DNA of 64,000 nucleotides from a virus (UHGV-1375844), one strand, 5' to 3'; numbered from the stretch's first letter, positions 2,815 through 64,000 are shown. Made by a program: numbers and translations. Notes: generated from the sequence alone by a model not told the origin.

Positions 2815-3195
2815 ATGGCTACCAATGAAACAAAACAAGGTCGCTACGCCGCCTATATCGACTCTCTCATCACCATTTCTCCAAAAAGTCAGGCCACTAT
2901 TGCTAAGGAAATTGGGTACAAAAACCCCAATAATCTATCGCTTATCAAAAGTGGCAAAATTCCTCTGCCGGTGGACAAGGTTCGCCCGTTGGCCAACTCT
3001 TTGGATGCTGATCCAGTACGTCTCATGCTCATGGTTCTCGAAGAGCGTCACCCTGAGCTTCTTGAGTTCTTCCGTGATGAAGGCACAGCTCCGCTTTCCC
3101 AAGACGAAAAACAGGTATTGGATGCTTTTCGTAAGCGTTTCGATGGTCAACAAGGTGCTTCAGAACAGGTCGTCGAGGCCATCAAGTCAATGTGA
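2815..3195 (+). CDS. Putative HTH transcriptional regulator (candidate lysogeny-switch protein)
   Basis: N-terminal segment SQATIAKEIGYKNPNNLSLIKSGK resembles an XRE-type helix-turn-helix; divergent promoter region with 2340..2561; convergent with and adjacent to the integrase; variant of the intergenic palindrome (agtaagcacttac, 2771-2783) upstream. Confidence 0.5.
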   Translation: MATNETKQGRYAAYIDSLITISPKSQATIAKEIGYKNPNNLSLIKSGKIPLPVDKVRPLANSLDADPVRLMLMVLEERHPELLEFFRDEGTAPLSQDEKQVLDAFRKRFDGQQGASEQVVEAIKSM

Positions 3196-4559: not shown

Positions 4560-5183
4560 TTAAAAATCTTCCGCTTGTTCGTACCAGTCGCGTTCGGTAT
4601 CCGATTCTATGCGAGTAATTTCAAAATCCTCATCAATAAAATTCCACTTTTCATCACGCCATGACAAACGAACTTTGGCCTCTACATCAAACTCTGTACC
4701 GGAATAAACATGGTCAGGCAGCTGATCGCCCAAATAGTTGAATGCCACCTGCATGTCAAGAATACCCTTTGTTTCATCGTAAGCAGTATCGAGTACCGTT
4801 AGATCATCAATGACGAAACCTTCGGCGTTCGTGGTTGCGATATCTGCTGCTAACTCGTCATCCACGGCCATTTCAAGAGAGAGAAAGGGGCCATTATGAT
4901 AGATAGCTTCTTCGAAATTATTGTCACCAAAAGCGGCCATTAACAAACGAGACTCAAGCGGCGTTTCTTTGGAAACCTTAGTAAGCTCATGATAATTAGA
5001 GAAGTTCGAGTTTTTGGCGATGATCTCTAATGCCTGAGAATGCGTGAGAGAAACATCTGAGCGAGCCAGTTTTTTGGCTTTGGTTTTGATGAGTTCAAGA
5101 CAAGAATATTGTGACATGGCCGTTCTCCAAATTTCTGACGCTTTTGGAAACCGATAGCCTGCTAACCGGACTCCGCGCGTCAC
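4560..5183 (-). CDS. Hypothetical acidic protein (likely start at internal Met, MSQYSCLELIKTK)
   Basis: ORF track; no recognisable motif. Confidence 0.45.
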   Translation of the reverse strand: MTRGVRLAGYRFPKASEIWRTAMSQYSCLELIKTKAKKLARSDVSLTHSQALEIIAKNSNFSNYHELTKVSKETPLESRLLMAAFGDNNFEEAIYHNGPFLSLEMAVDDELAADIATTNAEGFVIDDLTVLDTAYDETKGILDMQVAFNYLGDQLPDHVYSGTEFDVEAKVRLSWRDEKWNFIDEDFEITRIESDTERDWYEQAEDF

Positions 5184-12716: not shown

Positions 12717-13184
12717 TCATGTGTTTTCTTTTGTTGCTTCTTCAACAAGTGCCGCGTACACGTCAGTGACGGGCGCCAGTGATTCTTTAGATGTGGTATC
12801 TGGGTTCGCTTTCTTAGTACGCTTGACCAGACTGTTTATGTTTGTGGAATTGCGTTTGCGGTGGTTGGTTGTGGCGTTCCTGTTGCGCTCTTCAACTTCC
12901 TTAATGAGAGCTGCCATATCGACGAAGTAGATGGGTTCCCCTTTGCGGATCTCCTCAACCATCATCTTTACCGCTTTGCATTTGCCAGCGGCAATAGCCG
13001 TGGCGCAGGATGTAAAGGACGTTGCCGGCAAACGCTTCTCTTTGTAAGCGAGTATGGTGTGCTGGCAGACGGTGTAGCTGCAATGCGCATCATCACCGCC
13101 TATCTTCACTTCGGGACAGCGAAGCGAATAGCCGTTGTTTCCGGAGATGGACGGGATTTTAGAAAAATCTGTTCTTGTGGACAT
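12717..13184 (-). CDS. Hypothetical Cys-rich protein (possible zinc-binding)
   Basis: ORF track 12717..13232, start moved to ATG 13184 (MSTRTDFSK); CPEVKIGGDDAHCSYTVCQH ... SCATAIAAGKCK. Confidence 0.45.
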   Translation of the reverse strand: MSTRTDFSKIPSISGNNGYSLRCPEVKIGGDDAHCSYTVCQHTILAYKEKRLPATSFTSCATAIAAGKCKAVKMMVEEIRKGEPIYFVDMAALIKEVEERNRNATTNHRKRNSTNINSLVKRTKKANPDTTSKESLAPVTDVYAALVEEATKENT

Positions 13185-13265: not shown

Positions 13266-14060
13266 TTACCAGGTCGCCCAGCCGGTCATCTTGCCTTGTG
13301 CGGCCTCGAATCTAAACGGCTCAAGTAGTTCATTGGCGTGGTGGACGGCATATGATTTGGCCTCCTGCTTAACCATTGGGAGATCATTAGCCAGACGGAC
13401 AACCTGCCCCGCAAAGCTCGCGAGGACGCCATCGCAAGCCTGTCCTGCATCGACAATGATGCGCACCAGGTCAAGGTCGCTATGACACATATCGCAGATG
13501 GTGCCGTATTCAACCTCACGAACACGCTCCACAGCCTTCTTGGTGTCAGCATTTACAACTAAATCCAGCAGACCAGGCGGGGTCTTCAGCTCAGAAGAAC
13601 GTTCCATTACTTCAGGCAATTCGATGATGCTTAAGAATGCGGCGCAGGCTGTGTCCTCTTCCGTTTCCGCTCTGTTTTTGATCGCTCTTAGGGTGATGTC
13701 TACGACACTAAGAAGATCTTCACCATGCAGGCATTGGGCGTAATTTGTGAAGACGATACGGCCGTCGTACCAGGCACCGGTACGTATCTCCATCGCTCCA
13801 TTCTCAGCCTTCTTCATGAAAGCCACCAACGCGGCACGCTTCGGTTTAATGCCCGGTAATTCAGGGGACTCTCCAAAGCGAACCCACACCCGCATGTAAG
13901 AAGAACCTTCAGCAAGCGATACGGTCTTTAGCACCTGTGCAATATGCTTCAACGCCGCATCGATGGCTTCACCAACAATTTTCTGGCGTTCGTCAGCGTC
14001 GATTTCCACGCCCGATTTATCAATCATCTCTGTCACGGATTTTTGAATGTCTTCTTTCAT
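13266..14060 (-). CDS. Hypothetical protein (264 aa)
   Basis: ORF track; between ligase and primase in the replication module; no motif recognised. Confidence 0.5.
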   Translation of the reverse strand: MKEDIQKSVTEMIDKSGVEIDADERQKIVGEAIDAALKHIAQVLKTVSLAEGSSYMRVWVRFGESPELPGIKPKRAALVAFMKKAENGAMEIRTGAWYDGRIVFTNYAQCLHGEDLLSVVDITLRAIKNRAETEEDTACAAFLSIIELPEVMERSSELKTPPGLLDLVVNADTKKAVERVREVEYGTICDMCHSDLDLVRIIVDAGQACDGVLASFAGQVVRLANDLPMVKQEAKSYAVHHANELLEPFRFEAAQGKMTGWATW

Positions 14061-51594: not shown

Positions 51595-51634
51595 AGATCC
51601 CTCTAAAACACGCAGAGCGCATCCTTGCGCCCTC

Positions 51635-51682
51635 TAAACAATTTGTTTAAATCTCTGTCTAACCAATTTGTTTTCTGGGTGG
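51635..51682 (-). promoter_or_regulatory. Conserved promoter-proximal near-palindrome, copies 4 and 5 (tandem), upstream of terS
   Basis: taaacaatttgtttaaatc (51635-51653) and accaatttgttttctgggtgg (51662-51682). Confidence 0.45.
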
Positions 51683-51707
51683 TTTATCAAAACTTGAGAG
51701 TTGCAGA

Positions 51708-51788: not shown

Positions 51789-52055
51789 TTACATCACCAG
51801 TAACTTGGCCCTTGCTCGACCCAATGCAGTCAGCCCCAGCGTGCGGCGGTGATAGCCTGAATCCCCGCGCTGCCGACACATTCCCTTCTCCACCAGCCCC
51901 TTTTTCACCAGTGCGCGGATAGAGAACTGCATACTCTGCTTGGTCGTTTTGTACGGCAGGACTTCAAGCAGCTCGTCCAGATCAAGCAGATTCCCTCGCT
52001 CGTGCCCTAAATTGATGGTTTTAATGATGTCTTTCTGTTTGTCGGTCAAAGTCAT
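51789..52055 (-). CDS. Putative winged-helix DNA-binding protein (88 aa)
   Basis: Basic C-terminal half; last gene of the ParB-ATPase-GNAT operon. Confidence 0.4.
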   Translation of the reverse strand: MTLTDKQKDIIKTINLGHERGNLLDLDELLEVLPYKTTKQSMQFSIRALVKKGLVEKGMCRQRGDSGYHRRTLGLTALGRARAKLLVM

Positions 52056-57603: not shown

Positions 57604-58131
57604 ATGACGAACATAACTGACATCACCTACGGTATACCTGCAGAAGTCTGGCCGCGGGATTATTCTAACGTCGAGAAGGCACTCATGTTCTGGCGTAAAT
57701 CCCTCATTCCTGTAAGGGTCACGATGGAGGATGGTCAGGTGTTCTGCATGTATGTGCAGGGTCTCATGTCATCCCGCAATAAGGTTGATCTTTGCTCTGC
57801 CCCGTTCGACAAAGAAAATCGTATAAGGCTCCCACTTGAGCGGATCAGCACGATTGAGTCGGGTGTGACAGAAAGTATTGGACACGACTTCAAGGGGCGA
57901 ATCACGATTAACCCCGAATATGTTGATAATCGGCCATCTCGCCGGGACTTCTTCAAAATCTGTCGGCAGGCTCATGCGTCTCAGAAGTCTATAAGGGTGT
58001 ACATGGCGGATGGCCGTGAAATTGAAGGTGTGTCATTAGGCGTTGACGCTTGCCAGGTCACGATCGGCATTGGTGAAGGTCGCAAGATGGTGGTCTTGTT
58101 CGATTGGGTCGAAAGGATTATACCGTTTTAA
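57604..58131 (+). CDS. Hypothetical protein (175 aa)
   Basis: ORF track; 4 nt after the lipoprotein gene. Confidence 0.45.
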   Translation: MTNITDITYGIPAEVWPRDYSNVEKALMFWRKSLIPVRVTMEDGQVFCMYVQGLMSSRNKVDLCSAPFDKENRIRLPLERISTIESGVTESIGHDFKGRITINPEYVDNRPSRRDFFKICRQAHASQKSIRVYMADGREIEGVSLGVDACQVTIGIGEGRKMVVLFDWVERIIPF

Positions 58132-58452
58132 ATCTATAAGGGTAATAACCGGCTAAGTCCGGTTATTATTTTATGGGTCACTTCTTCACTATATATTCCT
58201 TACAGCCAATTCCCGCCAATAATATATAAGGGCAATCTCACAATTGCGTTATTTATTTAGGGAACACCTTCAAGAAAAACGGATTTATTTCTAAGACTTT
58301 GATTTTTATTGAATAAAATTTTTTCCTGCTACCTTACAAAAAATACTTGCTTTTAAAATTCATATAGCGATAATTACACACATCGAAAGCGAACACGCTA
58401 ACGATAAATAAAAAACAAATTAATTTTCAATATTACATAAGGATTAAATATT

Positions 58453-59100
58453 ATGTCTAACGTTATCTCTAAAAAAGCTATCATCGACGCTGCTGTAGTT
58501 ATCACTGAAGAGCTTCAGATCAAAGCAAATGAAGCAAGCCAGACACGCGAACAACGCGCTAAAAATGGAACTGCTACCAAAGCAGATAAAGCTAACGAGC
58601 TTGCAGCCACTACTAAACTTGCATACTTCACTAACAACGTATTAAACGCGCTTAAAGATGAAAAATTAGCTGGTGTCTTTTACTACGCGATTAAAGCCAG
58701 CAAGCAAGATCCAGAAGTATTTTTCCGTGAAGCGATGACTAATAGCTACTCTCTCGAAAAGCTGGTTTATCTGGTGAAGTCTATTAAGTCTGGCAAATGT
58801 GTTTATTCAGTCGCTGATATGTCAGGATCTCGCGTATTCGCATTAATCGAAATGATTAATGATGAAATGGAAACTTTTACTAATGGCGCTGTATTCGATT
58901 TAATGAATGAAGCTAAAAAAGCATGTGAGATTAAATTAGACGCTGGCTACACTCAAGCCAATCAGCTTATCAATTTGTGTGAACGTCTGGGACTGGTCGA
59001 GAAGATCAAAGGAATGGGCGCTGCTAAAAACGGATCTCAGCAATATCGCTTTATCAAGAATGATTTTTATAACTATCTGGCTGAAGCGTTCAAAGCGTAA
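58453..59100 (+). CDS. Hypothetical protein (215 aa), AT-rich moron-like gene
   Basis: Preceded by a ~300-bp very AT-rich promoter-like region (58140-58450); followed by a strong terminator. Confidence 0.5.
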   Translation: MSNVISKKAIIDAAVVITEELQIKANEASQTREQRAKNGTATKADKANELAATTKLAYFTNNVLNALKDEKLAGVFYYAIKASKQDPEVFFREAMTNSYSLEKLVYLVKSIKSGKCVYSVADMSGSRVFALIEMINDEMETFTNGAVFDLMNEAKKACEIKLDAGYTQANQLINLCERLGLVEKIKGMGAAKNGSQQYRFIKNDFYNYLAEAFKA

Positions 59101-59150: not shown

Positions 59151-59354
59151 ATGACAAGCTATGACCAGATCCTCGCGGAGTATCGCGCAAAATATCGCGC
59201 TTATAAACTTGAATTAATCGACGATCTAAAAGCGCAACGCGATAAACTAAATTTTACTTTTGCTGATTTGCTTAACAGTAAAAGAGACTGTAAACGCAAG
59301 CGTGAATATTTGCGCTTGTCTGAAATGATCGGAAAACTGCAAAACAGCATTTAA
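59151..59354 (+). CDS. Hypothetical small basic protein (67 aa)
   Basis: ORF track; AGGA RBS; flanked by two near-identical terminator hairpins. Confidence 0.45.
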   Translation: MTSYDQILAEYRAKYRAYKLELIDDLKAQRDKLNFTFADLLNSKRDCKRKREYLRLSEMIGKLQNSI

Positions 59355-59356
59355 AC

Positions 59357-59430
59357 AAAAGCGCCCACTATGGGCGCTTTTTTCGTTTCAGGATCTCCAC
59401 CATAACGCGCCAACAATGGCGCGTTTTCTT
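59357..59430 (+). terminator. Tandem rho-independent terminators
   Basis: aaagcgccca-ctat-gggcgcttttttcg (59357-59382) and aacgcgcc-aacaat-ggcgcgttttctttt (59404-59430). Confidence 0.65.
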
Positions 59431-59859
59431 TTGTCTGGCGTTCACTCATTCACAACAAAAATAAGCTCCATAAAAACGCCACTGCGACGCGTTTTAACGT
59501 GTGGCAATACGTACCCATAGCTAAAACAAAAAAGCGCTCAGAATGCGAGGTGTGGCGTTTTAGTGTATGGCTTATTTTATGCTGTCGTGGGCGTGATCGT
59601 CTGGCGTTATCTGGCGACGTGATCCGCGCCATCCTTCGGGACGTGTCGGCAATAATGGCGTGATCCGTGGGCGCTCGCGTATAGTCTCCACGTTGGCGCA
59701 ACGTGTACGCGCTTACAGTCTCGTTTATTCAGTGATTCATAATCACATAGCGAAAGCTATCCGGATGGCTCAGGGGCTGAAAAGCCCACCAGCACCACCC
59801 CAGCGCCTCTGTGCATTTTCTGGTGTGATTCTGAGCGTCTCCCGCTCGGTTTCTACATA

Positions 59860-59990
59860 GAGGCAAACCCAGCCGTTTCCCGAAAATTCCCTGGCCGTTT
59901 CCCTACGGCTGCCCGAATCGCTCTCTGGCCGTTCCTGAAGTTTTCCCCTGCGGCAGCGGGCGTCCAAAAAGAAAGGGCCGTTTCCAGCCC
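59860..59990. repeat. Iteron-like array 1 (GCCGTTTCC motif, 4 copies)
   Basis: cagccgtttccc, ggccgtttccct, ggccgttcctg (variant), gggccgtttccag at irregular 25-40-bp spacing. Confidence 0.55.
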
Positions 59991-59998
59991 CTCCCCTC

Positions 59999-60481
59999 TC
60001 ACACGCCAGGCAGGATATGAATGCGGTTGCTGACATACATCTCTTTCACGAAGTCCCCGCATGTGACTTTCCATTCACTGACACCGGCTTCATAAACCAC
60101 GTTTTTGCATTTAAGTGCATTGTCAGCGATACGCACACCCTGCGCTGTTGCTTCCTGGTCGGTGAAGTCGAACCCGGATTCAGTTTTGACCCACACGGCA
60201 ATTTGTGTTGCCAGCTCGATGAGTTTTGACTGGCAGAAGCGACCGCGTCGTACCGGGAAGATAAATACCCCGAACCCCGCGGTGGTAACGTAGGCTTTTT
60301 CGAATACGCGTTTATGTCGACGGTTACAGATAATGTTGCTGGCGATCTGCTGCTTCTCTTTCCCTGACAACTCAATGGTCTCATTGCCACGCCAGGCGCC
60401 CAGCACGCTTTTTTCAATGTCAGAGTAAGTCACGGAGATCGTGCCATGCTCGGGAGTGTTCACAGTAGCGATATAGTTCAT
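59999..60481 (-). CDS. Hypothetical early protein (160 aa)
   Basis: ORF track; own promoter-proximal motif upstream. Confidence 0.5.
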   Translation of the reverse strand: MNYIATVNTPEHGTISVTYSDIEKSVLGAWRGNETIELSGKEKQQIASNIICNRRHKRVFEKAYVTTAGFGVFIFPVRRGRFCQSKLIELATQIAVWVKTESGFDFTDQEATAQGVRIADNALKCKNVVYEAGVSEWKVTCGDFVKEMYVSNRIHILPGV

Positions 60482-60493
60482 CGAGATAATCCT

Positions 60494-60517
60494 TTAAACA
60501 ATTTGTTTTCTTGATGG
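60494..60517 (-). promoter_or_regulatory. Conserved promoter-proximal near-palindrome, copy 6
   Basis: ttaaacaatttgttttcttgatgg; on the minus strand follows GATAAT (-10-like) with a TTGGAC -35-like box 16 nt upstream. Confidence 0.5.
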
Positions 60518-60704
60518 TTTAATTATCGCTACGCGTATCAGGCGTCCAAGCGCTCTATTCCGGCATCTGTTTGCCTGAAGGGAGTCAGAGGGTCGTTCGG
60601 TAGCCTGGCGGTAAGAGGTGGGTGTTTTGCCTGATGTGATGAGGTTGGTATATCTGGCGGGCAAGCGGTGCTATCTTGGCCGCAGGTAACTCAGGAGACT
60701 CAAG

Positions 60705-60893
60705 ATGTTAGATAAACTGGATAATCTGCAATTAAGCGAAGAAGAGGCAACGGCTCTGGCCCAGCTCGTCAAACGACTCACCTGGACTGATATGCGAGGC
60801 TGTGCCGTTGACGATGATGAGGCGTATACCATCAGTGATGCGGTCGCCAAATTGCAGAAGAGTCTCGCTGAAGCAGGCTTCGCTCCGCGATAG
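60705..60893 (+). CDS. Hypothetical small protein (62 aa)
   Basis: ORF track; AGGAG RBS. Confidence 0.35.
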   Translation: MLDKLDNLQLSEEEATALAQLVKRLTWTDMRGCAVDDDEAYTISDAVAKLQKSLAEAGFAPR

Positions 60894-60920
60894 GCCACCA
60901 GCAAGGGTGGCCCCGTTCTC

Positions 60921-61202
60921 TTAGTGGAGCAGACCGACGTCGATGGTGTCGCCGGAGTCTGTGATGCGGATCATCAGCATGGCGAAGGCATTTAACGGAT
61001 AGCCTGCGTGCCACTCCGGGAAACGATCGTCTCGCATGAAATCGGCAATGTCATACACGCTGTCCTGAAAACGGAAGAAGCGGGTGGCGCTCTGCTCGTC
61101 GTATTCAACATGATCCATCTCCTGCTGTTCTGCCGGCGACAGGTCCAGCCAGGACTCCAGGTAAACATTTTCAGCTTTAGGGGTAATTGTAAAATCGGTC
61201 AT
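60921..61202 (-). CDS. Hypothetical early acidic protein (93 aa)
   Basis: ORF track; own promoter-proximal motif. Confidence 0.45.
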   Translation of the reverse strand: MTDFTITPKAENVYLESWLDLSPAEQQEMDHVEYDEQSATRFFRFQDSVYDIADFMRDDRFPEWHAGYPLNAFAMLMIRITDSGDTIDVGLLH

Positions 61203-61220
61203 GTGCTTAATCCTCAGTGC

Positions 61221-61244
61221 GTAAACAATTTGTTTTCTTGTTGG
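61221..61244 (-). promoter_or_regulatory. Conserved promoter-proximal near-palindrome, copy 7
   Basis: gtaaacaatttgttttcttgttgg followed by taattatcgc (GATAAT on the minus strand). Confidence 0.5.
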
Positions 61245-61329
61245 TGTAATTATCGCAGTGTGAATAAGGCAGAAAACATTTTGTTATCGGGGGCAAGTAA
61301 GTGGCGCGGGATTCGCGCCACTGGCGGGA

Positions 61330-61722
61330 TTAGGCGAACACGCTTTCAGGGATGTAATCATCAATGAGTGCGCCGGAGTTAATGCGCAAACCGTACTGAC
61401 CCATCCAGGTGCTGTTAGGGTTAAGATCTGAGGTGAACAGCGCGTTCACTTTCGTCATAAGCGATTCGAACATCGTACTATCGACGGTGCGGAAGTAGGC
61501 TTCCAGTTTGAGCAGTAGCGGATCTGATGCGTCGCTAATGTTCTGGTAGCCAATGGCGTATGTGCTCTTATCAGTACCCTTACGCACTAAGGTGCTGGTA
61601 TGTACCTCAGTTCCGGTGGTGTTATCACGCACAACAACGGTCAGTTTGGCAGTGGCTTCGCCGGAGGTGGTCTCAGATGCATAATGCAGATCGAGTACCA
61701 GATTTTCACGTAAAACAGTCAT
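61330..61722 (-). CDS. Hypothetical early protein (130 aa)
   Basis: ORF track. Confidence 0.45.
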   Translation of the reverse strand: MTVLRENLVLDLHYASETTSGEATAKLTVVVRDNTTGTEVHTSTLVRKGTDKSTYAIGYQNISDASDPLLLKLEAYFRTVDSTMFESLMTKVNALFTSDLNPNSTWMGQYGLRINSGALIDDYIPESVFA

Positions 61723-61762
61723 TATCTTCTCCCTGTGTTAGACCCCTTTTATATTATTGTCA

Positions 61763-61778
61763 TAAGTAACTACTTACA
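61763..61778. repeat. Intergenic palindrome family, copy
   Basis: ataagtaactacttac. Confidence 0.45.
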
Positions 61779-61852
61779 ATACAGAGTAGCCAAAAAAGCC
61801 CCGAAGGATGGACGGGGCTGTCGTAAATTCGACTAAACGCTTTTGCACATGG

Positions 61853-62164
61853 TCAGGCTGTGGCTTGAAGAGAGACGCGCTGTATTTCCTGCTGGGCTGC
61901 TTTATTGGCTTCAAGTAATGCCAGCTCAAGCTCCCCTTCTGGCCATATCATTTGTTTGGACACCCATCCTGTTTTCCCCTGGCGTCTGACACTCATCACA
62001 TAGCGCGAGCGGGCGCCATTTTCGAACGTGACAAGTGTCTCCTTGAAGAGCCTGATGGATGTACCGTTTGCGATAACATCAAGGAGAGTCAGTTGCTTCA
62101 GTATTGTTGGCTTGGCCTTTTTTGGCTGCCCAACACTCAGTCTGGAAATCATCCCGATATTCAT
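61853..62164 (-). CDS. Hypothetical early protein (start at internal Met, MNIGMISRLSVGQ)
   Basis: ORF-track frame extends through the promoter motif; ATG at 62164 lies just downstream of motif copy 8. Confidence 0.45.
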   Translation of the reverse strand: MNIGMISRLSVGQPKKAKPTILKQLTLLDVIANGTSIRLFKETLVTFENGARSRYVMSVRRQGKTGWVSKQMIWPEGELELALLEANKAAQQEIQRVSLQATA

Positions 62165-62175
62165 ACACAACTCCG

Positions 62176-62199
62176 TAAACAATTTGTTTTCTTGATGGC
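62176..62199 (-). promoter_or_regulatory. Conserved promoter-proximal near-palindrome, copy 8
   Basis: gtaaacaatttgttttcttgatgg; TATTAT -10-like hexamer on the minus strand. Confidence 0.5.
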
Positions 62200-62304
62200 G
62201 TAAATAATACCAGTGTGAAAACGGTGACAAAGCGTGTCGTTACGGCGCTGCGCTGCCCCGGAGGTGGCAAACAACAAAAAGCCACCGTGCTGGTGGCCTC
62301 ACTC

Positions 62305-62523
62305 TTAATCTTCTTCGTCCGGGAACTCGCTGTGTACCGCGTCCACCAGCTGCCGCTTTTCATCTTCACTCAGCAGGTGCCAGATATCCTTCCCTTTGGG
62401 CGATTCCCCTTCTGCCGGGACGAACGACCATAGCTTGCGGTGCAGTTCCGGCCCTACAGCATCCAGACATTCGGCCAGCGAATCCACACTCCACACCTCA
62501 ACCAGCACAGGCATCTTAATCAT
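62305..62523 (-). CDS. Hypothetical early acidic protein (start at internal Met, MIKMPVLVEVW)
   Basis: ORF track 62305..62601; internal ATG 62523 has a GAGGG RBS. Confidence 0.4.
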   Translation of the reverse strand: MIKMPVLVEVWSVDSLAECLDAVGPELHRKLWSFVPAEGESPKGKDIWHLLSEDEKRQLVDAVHSEFPDEED

Positions 62524-62533
62524 CTCTTCGCCC

Positions 62534-62752
62534 TCACTTCGTTTCTGACGTTGTGCAGTTCCACGCGACGGACATTGGGCTGTCCTCGATATGGAAATCA
62601 AACGTCCCTTCTCTGTACCCTTCAGAGATAAGCGTCGCTACGCGAGTAGTGACATCCTGGGAACGGATAACGTCATCGAGGGAGATCTGGAGTTCGTCAG
62701 TGCATGTCTCTTCTCCGCAAAGGGTGATGCTGATATTAAGATGCTTGTACAT
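62534..62752 (-). CDS. Hypothetical early protein (72 aa)
   Basis: ORF track; promoter-proximal motif upstream. Confidence 0.45.
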   Translation of the reverse strand: MYKHLNISITLCGEETCTDELQISLDDVIRSQDVTTRVATLISEGYREGTFDFHIEDSPMSVAWNCTTSETK

Positions 62753-62767
62753 GTGTTTCTCCTTTGT

Positions 62768-62790
62768 CTAAACACGTTGTTTTCTTATTG
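62768..62790 (-). promoter_or_regulatory. Conserved promoter-proximal near-palindrome, copy 9 (variant AAACACGTTGTTTTCT)
   Basis: ctaaacacgttgttttcttattgg followed by ttattatcgc. Confidence 0.45.
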
Positions 62791-62897
62791 GTGTTATTAT
62801 CGCAATAAGAAAACGGGGAAAAAGCATTCATTAAAGGCTGATGTGTTTGTGTCGATTTATTGCTATGTATGTATCTGGCTAACTCAGAGGGAATGTG

Positions 62898-63140
62898 ATG
62901 AGCACTAACAACTACACAGACGGCTACTTCAGCATCGATGTCGAGAGAGGCGAACTGCTACATGGCGGCGCCTCTGTTGGACGCATTATTCTGGTCAACG
63001 GCCAGATTTACACAGAGCTGGACGATAGCAGTGCAGACACACCTGTCGTCTCCGGTCCCTTCGGGACAAGAGAGGAGGCGTTAGATGATTTGTGGGACAA
63101 CAGGGATGATGCAAATCAGGGCAGCGAGATTTTCGAATAA
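62898..63140 (+). CDS. Hypothetical acidic protein (80 aa)
   Basis: ORF track starts at GTG 62895; ATG at 62898 with GAGGGA RBS. Confidence 0.4.
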   Translation: MSTNNYTDGYFSIDVERGELLHGGASVGRIILVNGQIYTELDDSSADTPVVSGPFGTREEALDDLWDNRDDANQGSEIFE

Positions 63141-63289
63141 ACGTCCTCGGCAATTTCGCCACCAAAACCCTTAACCCTTTACACTAGCTCTGGCTTCCCG
63201 ACATGAGCGTGCGAAGCTAGTCTGGTCTCAACACTCAATTGCGGGACTCACAAGTTCCCGCAATATTCAGGTTAACGAGAAGCAAGACA

Positions 63290-63450
63290 CACTCCCGCAG
63301 CGCTCCCTCGCTCTTTACCGGGATGCATCCGTTTCCTGACCTGAAGCCAGCCTTTTCCCGGTTCGCATGACGGGATTCTCCCCGTTTCCCTGAAAAACCC
63401 AGCCGTTTCCCTGCGGCGATGCTCCCGTTTTCCAGTAGGGATGCAGCCTT
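63290..63450. repeat. Iteron-like array 2 (CCGTTTCC motif, 5-6 copies)
   Basis: atccgtttcctg, agccttttcccgg, ccccgtttccctg, agccgtttccctg, cccgttttccag, agccttttctctg. Confidence 0.55.
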
Positions 63451-63499
63451 TTCTCTGGATGGCCCGCAGGTTGACCGTAGGGGTGGGGAGGGACGTTAC

Positions 63500-64000
63500 G
63501 GGAGATAAAATCATGGCTTGAATAAATACGGGAAAAGTAGCGATCCCCCTCTTCCCCTTCCCACTTATACCTCCAGTTAAATCTCTGCGTTCCTCTCTCC
63601 TTTAATCGAATCTGTCTTCCCTCCGATAAGGCTCAATACGATGACTACCTCTGTACGTGAAATGGGTGGTTCGTACTCTCTGCCGGCATATGTCTTTTTG
63701 CGCTTCTTGAGGCTGTTCTTCTATGCGTTTTCTTCTGGGTTGTTTTCGTCTCTTTGGGTGTTCTTCTTCTCTGGGTATTGAGTAATGGCAGGTGTGCTTT
63801 CCTCTTCGTTTACTTGCTGAGAAGGAAGTGTGGGGAATGGCAGTAGGGCGCTTTAGTTGTTCTCTGCATATCAAGTAATAGCGTTCCCTGCTTTTCAGGA
63901 CTTTGCGCTCTCTTCAGGGGTAATGGTGGGTAAGTAAGATTGCAACGGCTCCTGTTCTGGTCTGGGTTTGCCCGGGGTTGCATTCTGAGCGCTGTTCTCT
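63500..64000. other. ORF-free pyrimidine-rich (T/C-skewed) region at the window end
   Basis: Strong T+C excess on the plus strand; no RBS-supported ORF; follows iteron array 2. Confidence 0.4.

Follow-up and report, generated by a model that had tools for sequence, protein, structure and literature searches.

Positions 59999 to 63140 of the viral sequence UHGV-1375844, which was analyzed as a window of 64,000 nucleotides (nt), comprise eight small genes (Table 1) and form a conserved accessory module of a phage-plasmid. This block is probably a repressor-controlled module of small genes within a regulon that extends over the whole element, with products that may be directed at the host. The window is a phage-plasmid of the SSU5/pHCM2 type because of its similarity to plasmids and to phage SSU5 and because of a colinear annotation of phage and plasmid genes. 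The region 59400-64000 shows 98% nucleotide identity to plasmids of Salmonella enterica and Enterobacter hormaechei, the block itself being 98% identical to the Salmonella plasmid pSA20094620.2 with the same gene order, and phage SSU5 matches the region with 82% identity over 94%, likewise with the gene order kept. The best plasmid match is of the IncFIB type and non-mobilisable, and its annotation, which is colinear with the window, includes a siphovirus structural module, a terminase, a DnaB-like helicase, a ligase, an integrase, ParB-like genes, and tRNAs. Approximately 890 plasmid records (Klebsiella, Escherichia, Enterobacter, Salmonella, Yersinia pMT1, and others) contain the block in full or in part. 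Within the SSU5 group (SSU5, Salmonella Typhi pHCM2, Yersinia pestis pMT1, and the Escherichia coli phage Cyrano) the block, its gene order, and its promoter/operator cassettes are orthologous, the corresponding genes being SSU5_110 to SSU5_117 and CYRAN_104 to CYRAN_111. In the records of this group they are annotated as hypothetical or are misnamed, e.g., as "ABC transporter" or "repressor-like".

A direct repeat of 55 nt was found in four copies within the block, at 60495, 61222, 62176, and 62769. The copies precede the genes P160, P93, P103, and P72b, and each of them stops 10-20 nt short of the start codon, so that the conserved promoter element which a sequence-only reading of the window had placed before four of the genes was indeed recovered. 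On the coding strand, every cassette consists of the hexamer GATAAT or TATTAT, which is preceded by TGn in three of the four cassettes, followed by a spacer of 10-11 nt, the 17-bp near-palindrome AGAAAACAAnTTGTTTA (type-1 operator), 0-6 nt, a Shine-Dalgarno sequence, and, after another 6-8 nt, the ATG. The conserved -10 hexamer with its TG extension suggests that the cassettes act as promoters. If the hexamer is the -10 box, the transcription start is predicted approximately 3 nt before the 17-mer, which would then cover approximately +3 to +20 of the transcript.

The operator is not restricted to the block. An 18-nt operator core occurs 9 times in the 64-kb window, whereas 0.04 occurrences are expected and none of 100 shuffles reached 9, and the element is therefore genome-wide and not private to the block. 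All nine strong sites are intergenic, and each is located just 5′ of a start codon. The sites outside the block have the 17-mer alone in common while their flanks differ, which points to selection on the palindrome itself. Furthermore, the operator is kept at orthologous positions in every relative examined, namely SSU5, a Klebsiella plasmid, two E. coli plasmids, pMT1, and Cyrano, and the two E. coli plasmids retain their sites at a nucleotide identity of only 68-73% to the block. The operator counts are significant over shuffled sequences at each of these loci except that of pMT1, where 2 sites were found and 1 of 200 shuffles was equal. In Cyrano, the two scanned stretches, 78 kb in total, contain 17 operator sites, compared to approximately 0.1 expected. 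Viral contigs were also scanned for the exact 17-mer, but the SSU5-like contigs returned were mixed with chance matches, so that the outcome was not informative. Both this operator regulon and a second palindrome described below appear to be undescribed, as the literature searched contained no description of an operator regulon or of lysis-lysogeny control in the SSU5 group.

The operator was described by a matrix built from the phage sites, and its symmetry was judged over a collection of 30 sites. Little or no change is seen in the arms AAACA and TGTTT, the base at the centre is not constrained, and substitutions at the innermost position of the right arm occur uncompensated. As RNA, the 17-mer could form at best five A-U-rich pairs around a 3-nt loop, while as DNA it has the appearance of a classical dimer site. 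In several units a second, inverted operator copy is located 5′ of the -10 box, and the centre-to-centre distance is constant at 51 bp. Such pairs were found at 61280/61229 in the window, at 13298/13247 in SSU5, and at 13172/13121 in Cyrano, and the P93 units of SSU5 and Klebsiella are built alike. A distance of 51 bp corresponds to approximately five helical turns, and the upstream copy lies outside the predicted transcript of the promoter concerned, which argues for a pair of DNA operators bracketing the promoter. This inverted upstream partner at a fixed spacing, outside the transcript, is the main reason for which transcriptional repression is preferred over a regulation at the RNA level.

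Expression data were available for a published lysogen of Cyrano grown in lysogeny broth (PMC9928086 S1 Table), given as normalised reads, with 9.8 as the Cyrano median and 49 as the cut-off for a "moron". The orthologues of P160 (CYRAN_111, 68% identity), P93 (CYRAN_110, 83% identity), P130 (CYRAN_107, 58% identity), and P103 (CYRAN_106, 55% identity) show 25.5, 6.7, 17.0, and 12.2 reads, respectively. Those of P160, P93, and P103 are preceded by the same operators, that of P130 is not. Other operator-linked genes of Cyrano are similarly low, with 7.1 reads for the small-terminase gene terS, 7.8 for the CobT-like gene, and 21 for the helicase gene. As the orthologues are at background in the lysogen, the block genes are not lysogeny-expressed cargo; their behavior, which was shown in the relative Cyrano only, resembles that of lytic genes and agrees with their being repressed in the plasmid state. 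Ciprofloxacin is reported to give a 39-fold induction of Cyrano (PMC9928086).

The repeated cassette might also be no regulatory switch of the element but a promoter module that was duplicated, or a host-factor site, and that recombination spread along with gene cassettes, the palindrome then having no repressor. The four block copies are alike over 55 nt, more so than the operator sites elsewhere in the window, which suggests that cassettes and small genes were duplicated together, and the -10 region GCGATAATTA presumably resembles the A/T-rich sites of nucleoid proteins. Against this stand the sharing of the 17-mer alone, with different flanks, outside the block, the retention of the palindrome at orthologous positions through approximately 30% divergence, the recurrence of the 51-bp pairs in several genomes, and the silence of the linked genes in the lysogen. 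We regard this explanation as highly improbable.

Two proteins encoded in the window are candidates for binding the operator. The first one is an XRE/CI-like regulator encoded beside the integrase gene, which is a classical candidate for an operator repressor. It is the counterpart of CYRAN_45 by position and annotation, the sequences not having been compared, and this "putative repressor" gene is expressed in the Cyrano lysogen with 96 reads. A LexA-like S24 peptidase gene shows 148 reads in the same lysogen.

The second candidate is a protein of the FljA family, which among phages was found in SSU5-like elements only, i.e., in the carriers of the motif, and which every SSU5-like relative, pMT1 included, has retained. 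Its function could be to silence the host flagellin, to control genes of the element itself, or both. Since it is a full-length member of the Flag1_repress family (E 3e-89), the 17-mer might instead act in RNA, the FljA-like protein binding the 5′ end of the mRNA, blocking translation, and destabilising the message, as FljA does with fliC mRNA. FljA is known to bind in the 5′ untranslated region (5′-UTR) beside the ribosome-binding site, and the 17-mer would be suitably placed for this, as it ends 0-6 nt from the Shine-Dalgarno sequence in the four block cassettes. In addition, the fliC leaders of Salmonella and Citrobacter contain AACATCAAGTTGTAAT just 5′ of the Shine-Dalgarno sequence, which has the octamer CAAGTTGT in common with operator variants. 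The octamer of Salmonella fliC has the same position relative to the Shine-Dalgarno sequence as in the operator, yet the whole site scores -4.1 bits against the operator matrix, compared to 17-26 bits for real sites, and the spacing in E. coli fliC is different. The leaders compared were those of E. coli, Salmonella, and Citrobacter. Furthermore, FljA has one host mRNA as its known target, compared to a regulon of approximately 20 sites here, and the FljA-like gene reaches only 18 reads in the Cyrano lysogen, 1.8 times background. The inverted copies 51 bp upstream, past the -10 box and outside the transcript of that promoter, favor DNA as the target, as does the symmetry with its variable centre, which suits a DNA-binding dimer better than a short A-U-rich stem. 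An operator acting in RNA is therefore considered unlikely.

Three further genes were considered as source of a lysogenic repressor and rejected, as their Cyrano counterparts, which were matched by synteny and annotation without comparing the sequences, are silent in the lysogen. These are a 215-aa (amino acid) gene (58453-59100; counterpart CYRAN_113), an 88-aa winged-helix-like gene (51789-52055, minus strand), and a gene for a 71-aa regulator, with 5.9, 7.8, and 6.4 reads, respectively. The 88-aa gene, which looks winged-helix-like by its sequence, is the last one of an operon encoding two ParB proteins, an ABC-ATPase, and an acetyltransferase fusion. This operon is located directly 5′ of the terS operators and is silent as a whole in the Cyrano lysogen.

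Under transcriptional control, a dimeric repressor encoded by the element and present in the plasmid (lysogenic) state would most likely occupy the operator AGAAAACAAnTTGTTTA and, where it exists, also the second, inverted operator at a distance of 51 bp, which lies across the -35 region. Its binding would shut the cassette promoters of P72b-P72a, P103, P93, and P160. The same operator would guard the genes for the helicase, the ParA-like and CobT-like proteins, and the small terminase, thus forming one element-wide regulon, which would be silent in the carrier state and would be released jointly when the element infects a repressor-free cell or is induced.

Several observations weigh against this reading. 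A scan with a sigma-70 consensus reported none of the four cassettes, and their -35 regions are poor. Since the operator falls within the first 20 nt of the predicted mRNA and beside the ribosome-binding site, control at the RNA level may occur. The region upstream of the XRE-like gene does not carry the 17-mer but a palindrome like the second type, and it is uncertain for this reason which protein is the binder. The ParA-like gene has an operator, yet shows 50 reads in the Cyrano lysogen, and repression is therefore not absolute. The operator is also found ahead of terS, so that the regulon is not simply "early"; a small-terminase operon is normally late. The literature searched contained no transcription-start or binding data for the SSU5 family. 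Regarding the products, none of the eight proteins belongs by sequence to a known anti-defence family (Ocr, ArdA, ArdB/KlcA, Acr, and others) according to Pfam, NCBIfam, PADLOC, and PDB. Structure prediction followed by structural search, named by the sequence-only reading as a check, did not supply a fold either: the AlphaFold models of P160 (predicted local distance difference test, pLDDT, 82) and of P93 (pLDDT 74, moderate) gave no match to solved or viral structures, including the known anti-defence proteins in PDB, and the best PDB match of P93 has an E of 2.9. Finally, P160 and P93 are core genes, and their retention even in pMT1 weakens a counter-defence role somewhat.

The label "early", which had been given to the genes of the block, can be kept in part. 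It is plausible for the four units with a cassette of their own and an operator in common with replication and packaging genes. It is called into question by the same operator heading the terminase operon and by the differing promoter of P130 described below.

Searches in Pfam, PHROGs, NCBIfam, and PADLOC with the eight proteins returned only DUF7706, for P62, and PHROGs of unknown function, for the seven others. The earlier statement that no protein of the block can be recognised thus holds for these seven but not for P62, which matches DUF7706 with 99 bits compared to a Pfam cut-off of 27. Homologues of P62 are found in IncN conjugative plasmids, where two loci (4948-5142) share a fixed position after virB11, nuc, and a GNAT gene, facing the relaxase gene; DUF7706 is therefore a small family common to phage-plasmids and conjugative plasmids. 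No match was obtained in PDB by sequence searches, for which four single sequences and three family profiles were used, and family searches revealed neither a DNA-binding nor a regulatory domain in the eight proteins. The families of P160, P93, and P103 are confined to SSU5-like elements of Enterobacterales, that of P103 being found on contigs of approximately 100-117 kb, and the members of the P93 family share at least 68% identity. An exhaustive search with P130 yielded 24 cluster representatives with 33-61% identity, all unannotated and none with a Pfam domain. The name "ABC transporter", which is carried by P93 orthologues in RefSeq and nr, is a propagated error, as P93 has 93 residues and no ATPase motif. 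The names of SSU5_116 ("repressor-like") and SSU5_119 ("CorA transporter") seem to lack a basis as well.

The block proteins are set apart by their acidity. The isoelectric point (pI) of six of the eight lies between 4.05 and 4.72, whereas a pI below 4.8 was found for only 2 of the 52 other annotated genes and 1 of the 23 small ones (6/8 versus 1/23; one-sided Fisher test, p ~2.5e-4). The net charge amounts to -13 for P93 (93 aa), -13 for P80 (80 aa), and -10 for P72a (72 aa). Small size and acidity are characteristic of DNA mimics and protein inhibitors, among them Ocr, ArdA, and many anti-CRISPRs, and the acidic block proteins are correspondingly small and strongly negative, as judged from their charge totals. 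Ocr, ArdA, KlcA/ArdB, and the anti-CRISPRs are likewise small and strongly acidic, are encoded by clustered short genes, and vary in content between relatives, and anti-restriction and anti-CRISPR clusters are expressed when an element enters a new cell. In contrast to this likeness, the block proteins do not match them in sequence, nor P160 and P93 in structure. We infer, from their size, charge, and partial variability only, that the block proteins most likely bind and inhibit host proteins or mimic nucleic acid, serving host takeover, anti-restriction, or other counter-defence.

Under the same regulation, the proteins could instead serve the life cycle of the element, as modulators of the lysis-lysogeny decision (anti-repressor, Cro-like), accessories of replication or copy-number control, or helpers of partition or packaging. 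Their co-regulation with the helicase, ParA-like, and terminase genes is in accordance with this, as are the basic nature of P103 (pI 10.3), which could bind nucleic acid, and the neighborhood of the block to a regulator cluster, i.e., the FljA-like gene and the 215-aa gene with its related promoter. Almost all relatives have P160, P93, and genes like P130 and P103, while P62, P72a/b, and P80 are variable, being present in some and gone from others. P160 and P93 are retained even in Yersinia pestis pMT1, which is degraded and has lost phage production, and this fits a plasmid-state or housekeeping function better than counter-defence, since counter-defence genes are usually variable. However, none of the eight proteins contains a DNA-binding or regulatory domain, six of them are strongly acidic, unlike typical regulators, and P62, P72a/b, P80, and the additional genes of E. 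coli relatives vary like accessory cargo. In these E. coli relatives the variable genes are replaced by other small genes, each with the same type-1 operator. A function in the life cycle of the element is seen as rather unlikely.

The closest known parallel is phage P1 with its C1 immunity system, as P1 likewise lives as a plasmid, has many short transcription units, and carries one operator scattered before unrelated lytic genes. In the present element one operator is placed ahead of several unrelated transcription units in the same dispersed manner. The sequence of the P1 C1 operator, an asymmetric 17-mer compared to the near-palindrome found here, is unrelated, and for the SSU5-type repressor only candidates are known. 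A further difference to P1 is that the SSU5-type operator also precedes the terminase operon. P1 comprises at least 45 transcriptional units, and 11 late promoters contain a conserved inverted repeat that is bound by the activator Lpa (PMC10695390).

A second palindrome was identified in the window, TAAGTAnnTACTTA, with the longer form ~ATAAGTAAGTnCTTACTTAT. It gave 26 matches at approximately 15 sites, compared to 0.84 expected window-wide, and eight sites were found in the first 50 kb of Cyrano. These type-2 sites are almost all intergenic and are located before portal, scaffold-like, Ig-like, tail, tail-fibre, and holin-region genes; further ones are found in the divergent region between the helicase and ParB genes and upstream of the XRE-like gene. 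A GC hairpin with a T run comes after many of the type-2 palindromes. No constant distance between palindrome and -10 box was found. The palindrome could be the site of a late activator, a second operator, or an RNA element preceding terminators. Like the 9-bp inverted repeat of the Lpa-dependent late promoters of P1, it is a second repeated palindrome tied mainly to structural and lysis genes, although in the absence of a fixed distance to the -10 box this is an analogy only.

One of the type-2 sites, TAAGTAGTTACTTA (61763-61776), overlaps the spacer of the P130 promoter. This promoter shows the -35/-10 spacing of sigma-70 promoters by eye, and its region is nearly invariant across six relatives that are otherwise approximately 30% divergent. 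P130 is outside the type-1 circuit and belongs to another regulatory class, as it has its own promoter without a type-1 operator and a palindrome shared mainly with structural and lysis intergenic regions, so that the label "early" is doubtful for it.

A bolder extension, which we consider quite unlikely, is that two undescribed genome-wide sets of cis-elements, the AGAAAACAAnTTGTTTA operator and the TAAGTAnnTACTTA palindrome, run the lytic program of the SSU5 group, with AGAAAACAAnTTGTTTA being read by the FljA-family protein as a DNA or 5′-UTR operator, and that the acidic proteins are new families of inhibitors of host functions or defence. If this were true, a regulator of the FljA type, known for only one flagellin mRNA, would turn out to be the main switch of a phage-plasmid. 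Among clinical Klebsiella, E. coli, Enterobacter, and Salmonella, SSU5-like phage-plasmids are encountered very frequently, and they also spread resistance genes. The operator offers a handle for finding the repressor, for defining the genes released on entry or induction, and for building reporters. Additionally, the eight compact, mostly acidic, conserved proteins make a short list of candidates for counter-defence and host-takeover screens; if none of the eight scores, the block would be ordinary accessory cargo of a known family.

The eight open reading frames (ORFs) of the block are to be regarded as real genes. All of them have a Shine-Dalgarno sequence and an ATG start, their lengths are conserved, each of the eight proteins matches a PHROG or Pfam family over its full length, and in 12 of 15 comparisons with SSU5 and Klebsiella orthologues more codon differences are synonymous than non-synonymous, the exceptions being P62 versus SSU5 as well as P130 and P103 versus Klebsiella. 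The number of short ORFs given by the sequence-only reading was thus right, whereas its count of seven on the minus strand has to be changed to six, with two on the plus strand. At 60705-60893 the plus-strand reading is the real one, because it matches DUF7706 (E 1e-28) and differs from the Klebsiella copy by 25 synonymous but 3 non-synonymous codons; probably the minus-strand ORF 60671-60904 had been taken for P62. P103 starts with the ATG at 62164, the TTG at 62230 in the ORF list being wrong. P80 is not preceded by a conserved cassette and was not found in the Klebsiella and E. coli relatives examined. In total, the block forms approximately seven short transcription units, mono- or bicistronic, most of which end in a terminator-like hairpin. 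In addition to the hairpins in Table 1, weaker ones are located 3′ of P130 and P160.

Table 1. Genes, promoter/operator cassettes, terminators, and operator sites of the block and of the remaining window.
Feature	Position	Strand	Details
P160	59999-60481	-	160 aa; basic, pI 8.7; PHROG 1641; most conserved gene of the block
P62	60705-60893	+	62 aa; acidic; Pfam DUF7706; convergent with P93
P93	60921-61202	-	93 aa; very acidic, pI 4.2; PHROG 1845
P130	61330-61722	-	130 aa; acidic, pI 4.7; PHROG 2473
P103	61853-62164	-	103 aa; basic, pI 10.3; PHROG 5125
P72a	62305-62523	-	72 aa; acidic, pI 4.5; PHROG 6757; second gene of a two-gene unit with P72b
P72b	62534-62752	-	72 aa; acidic, pI 4.35; PHROG 15489; first gene of the two-gene unit
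P80	62898-63140	+	80 aa; very acidic, pI 4.05; PHROG 23830; divergent from P72b
P160 cassette (putative promoter)	60495-60527	-	operator AGAAAACAAATTGTTTA 60495-60511; -10 GATAAT 60522-60527; no TG extension, no upstream operator
P93 cassette (putative promoter)	61222-61287	-	proximal operator 61222-61238; TGc and -10 GATAAT 61249-61254; inverted operator AGAAAACATTTTGTTAT (plus strand) 61271-61287
P103 cassette (putative promoter)	62176-62209	-	operator 62176-62192; TGg and -10 TATTAT 62204-62209
P72b-P72a cassette (putative promoter)	62769-62801	-	operator AGAAAACAACGTGTTTA 62769-62785; TGc and -10 GATAAT 62796-62801
P130 promoter (putative)	61751-61779	-	-35 TTGTAA 61774-61779; 17-nt spacer; -10 TAATAT 61751-61756; no type-1 operator
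Hairpin between convergent P62 and P93	60893-60912	.	GC-rich; likely bidirectional terminator
Hairpin 3′ of P103	61792-61818	-	GCCCCG-N9-CGGGGC, then TTTTTT; intrinsic-terminator-like; kept in all relatives
Hairpin 3′ of P72a	62278-62300	-	intrinsic-terminator-like
Strong operator site	2244		upstream of CobT-like gene
Strong operator site	16764		upstream of DnaB-like helicase gene
Strong operator site	19826		upstream of ParA-like AAA ATPase gene
Strong operator sites, two in tandem	51660 and 51635		upstream of small-terminase gene
Type-2 palindrome sites	2769, 7052, 10523, 14107, 17546, 22843, 23943, 29923, 36390, 42907, 46235, 48166, 49683, 55214, 61763
XRE/CI-like regulator	2815-3195	+	126 aa; beside integrase; PHROG 8, E 7e-10; candidate binder
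FljA-family protein	57604-58131	+	175 aa; Pfam PF03614 Flag1_repress, E 3e-89, 298 bits, profile 1-170 of 170; candidate binder

Beyond the block, the leader of the small-terminase gene (51595-51700, minus strand) contains a -10-like GATAAA and the two tandem type-1 operators, whose centres are 25 bp apart, followed by a hairpin with a T run before the Shine-Dalgarno sequence. This hints at a repressed promoter followed by an attenuator and at a control of the late operon by antitermination. A perfect 12-bp inverted repeat, CTGTACGAACAG-N9-CTGTTCGTACAG, without a T run, is located at 2281-2313, just 5′ of the operator of the CobT-like gene. Furthermore, a weak plus-strand operator copy at 58410 precedes the 215-aa gene, which has a GC content of 0.40. 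Its upstream region (58340-58452, plus strand) comprises a -10 region, ATAGCGATAATTACAC, akin to those of the block cassettes, which is followed only by a degenerate operator, AAAAAACAAATTAATTT.

By far the top gene of the Cyrano lysogen is CYRAN_43 with 7084 reads, approximately 720 times background. Its counterpart by position, the sequences not having been compared, is a 185-aa gene (4560-5117, minus strand; PHROG 28020) that adjoins the integrase gene and is a candidate for a lysogenic-conversion or exclusion factor.

Finally, the 640 bp between two terminators and P160 (59355-59998) do not contain a credible ORF, and a search against Rfam gave only sub-threshold, terminator-like matches, at 59241-59389. 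Three GGCCGTTTCC-like repeats were found within 115 bp of this region (59871-59985), and a related 30-mer is located again at 63382-63411.

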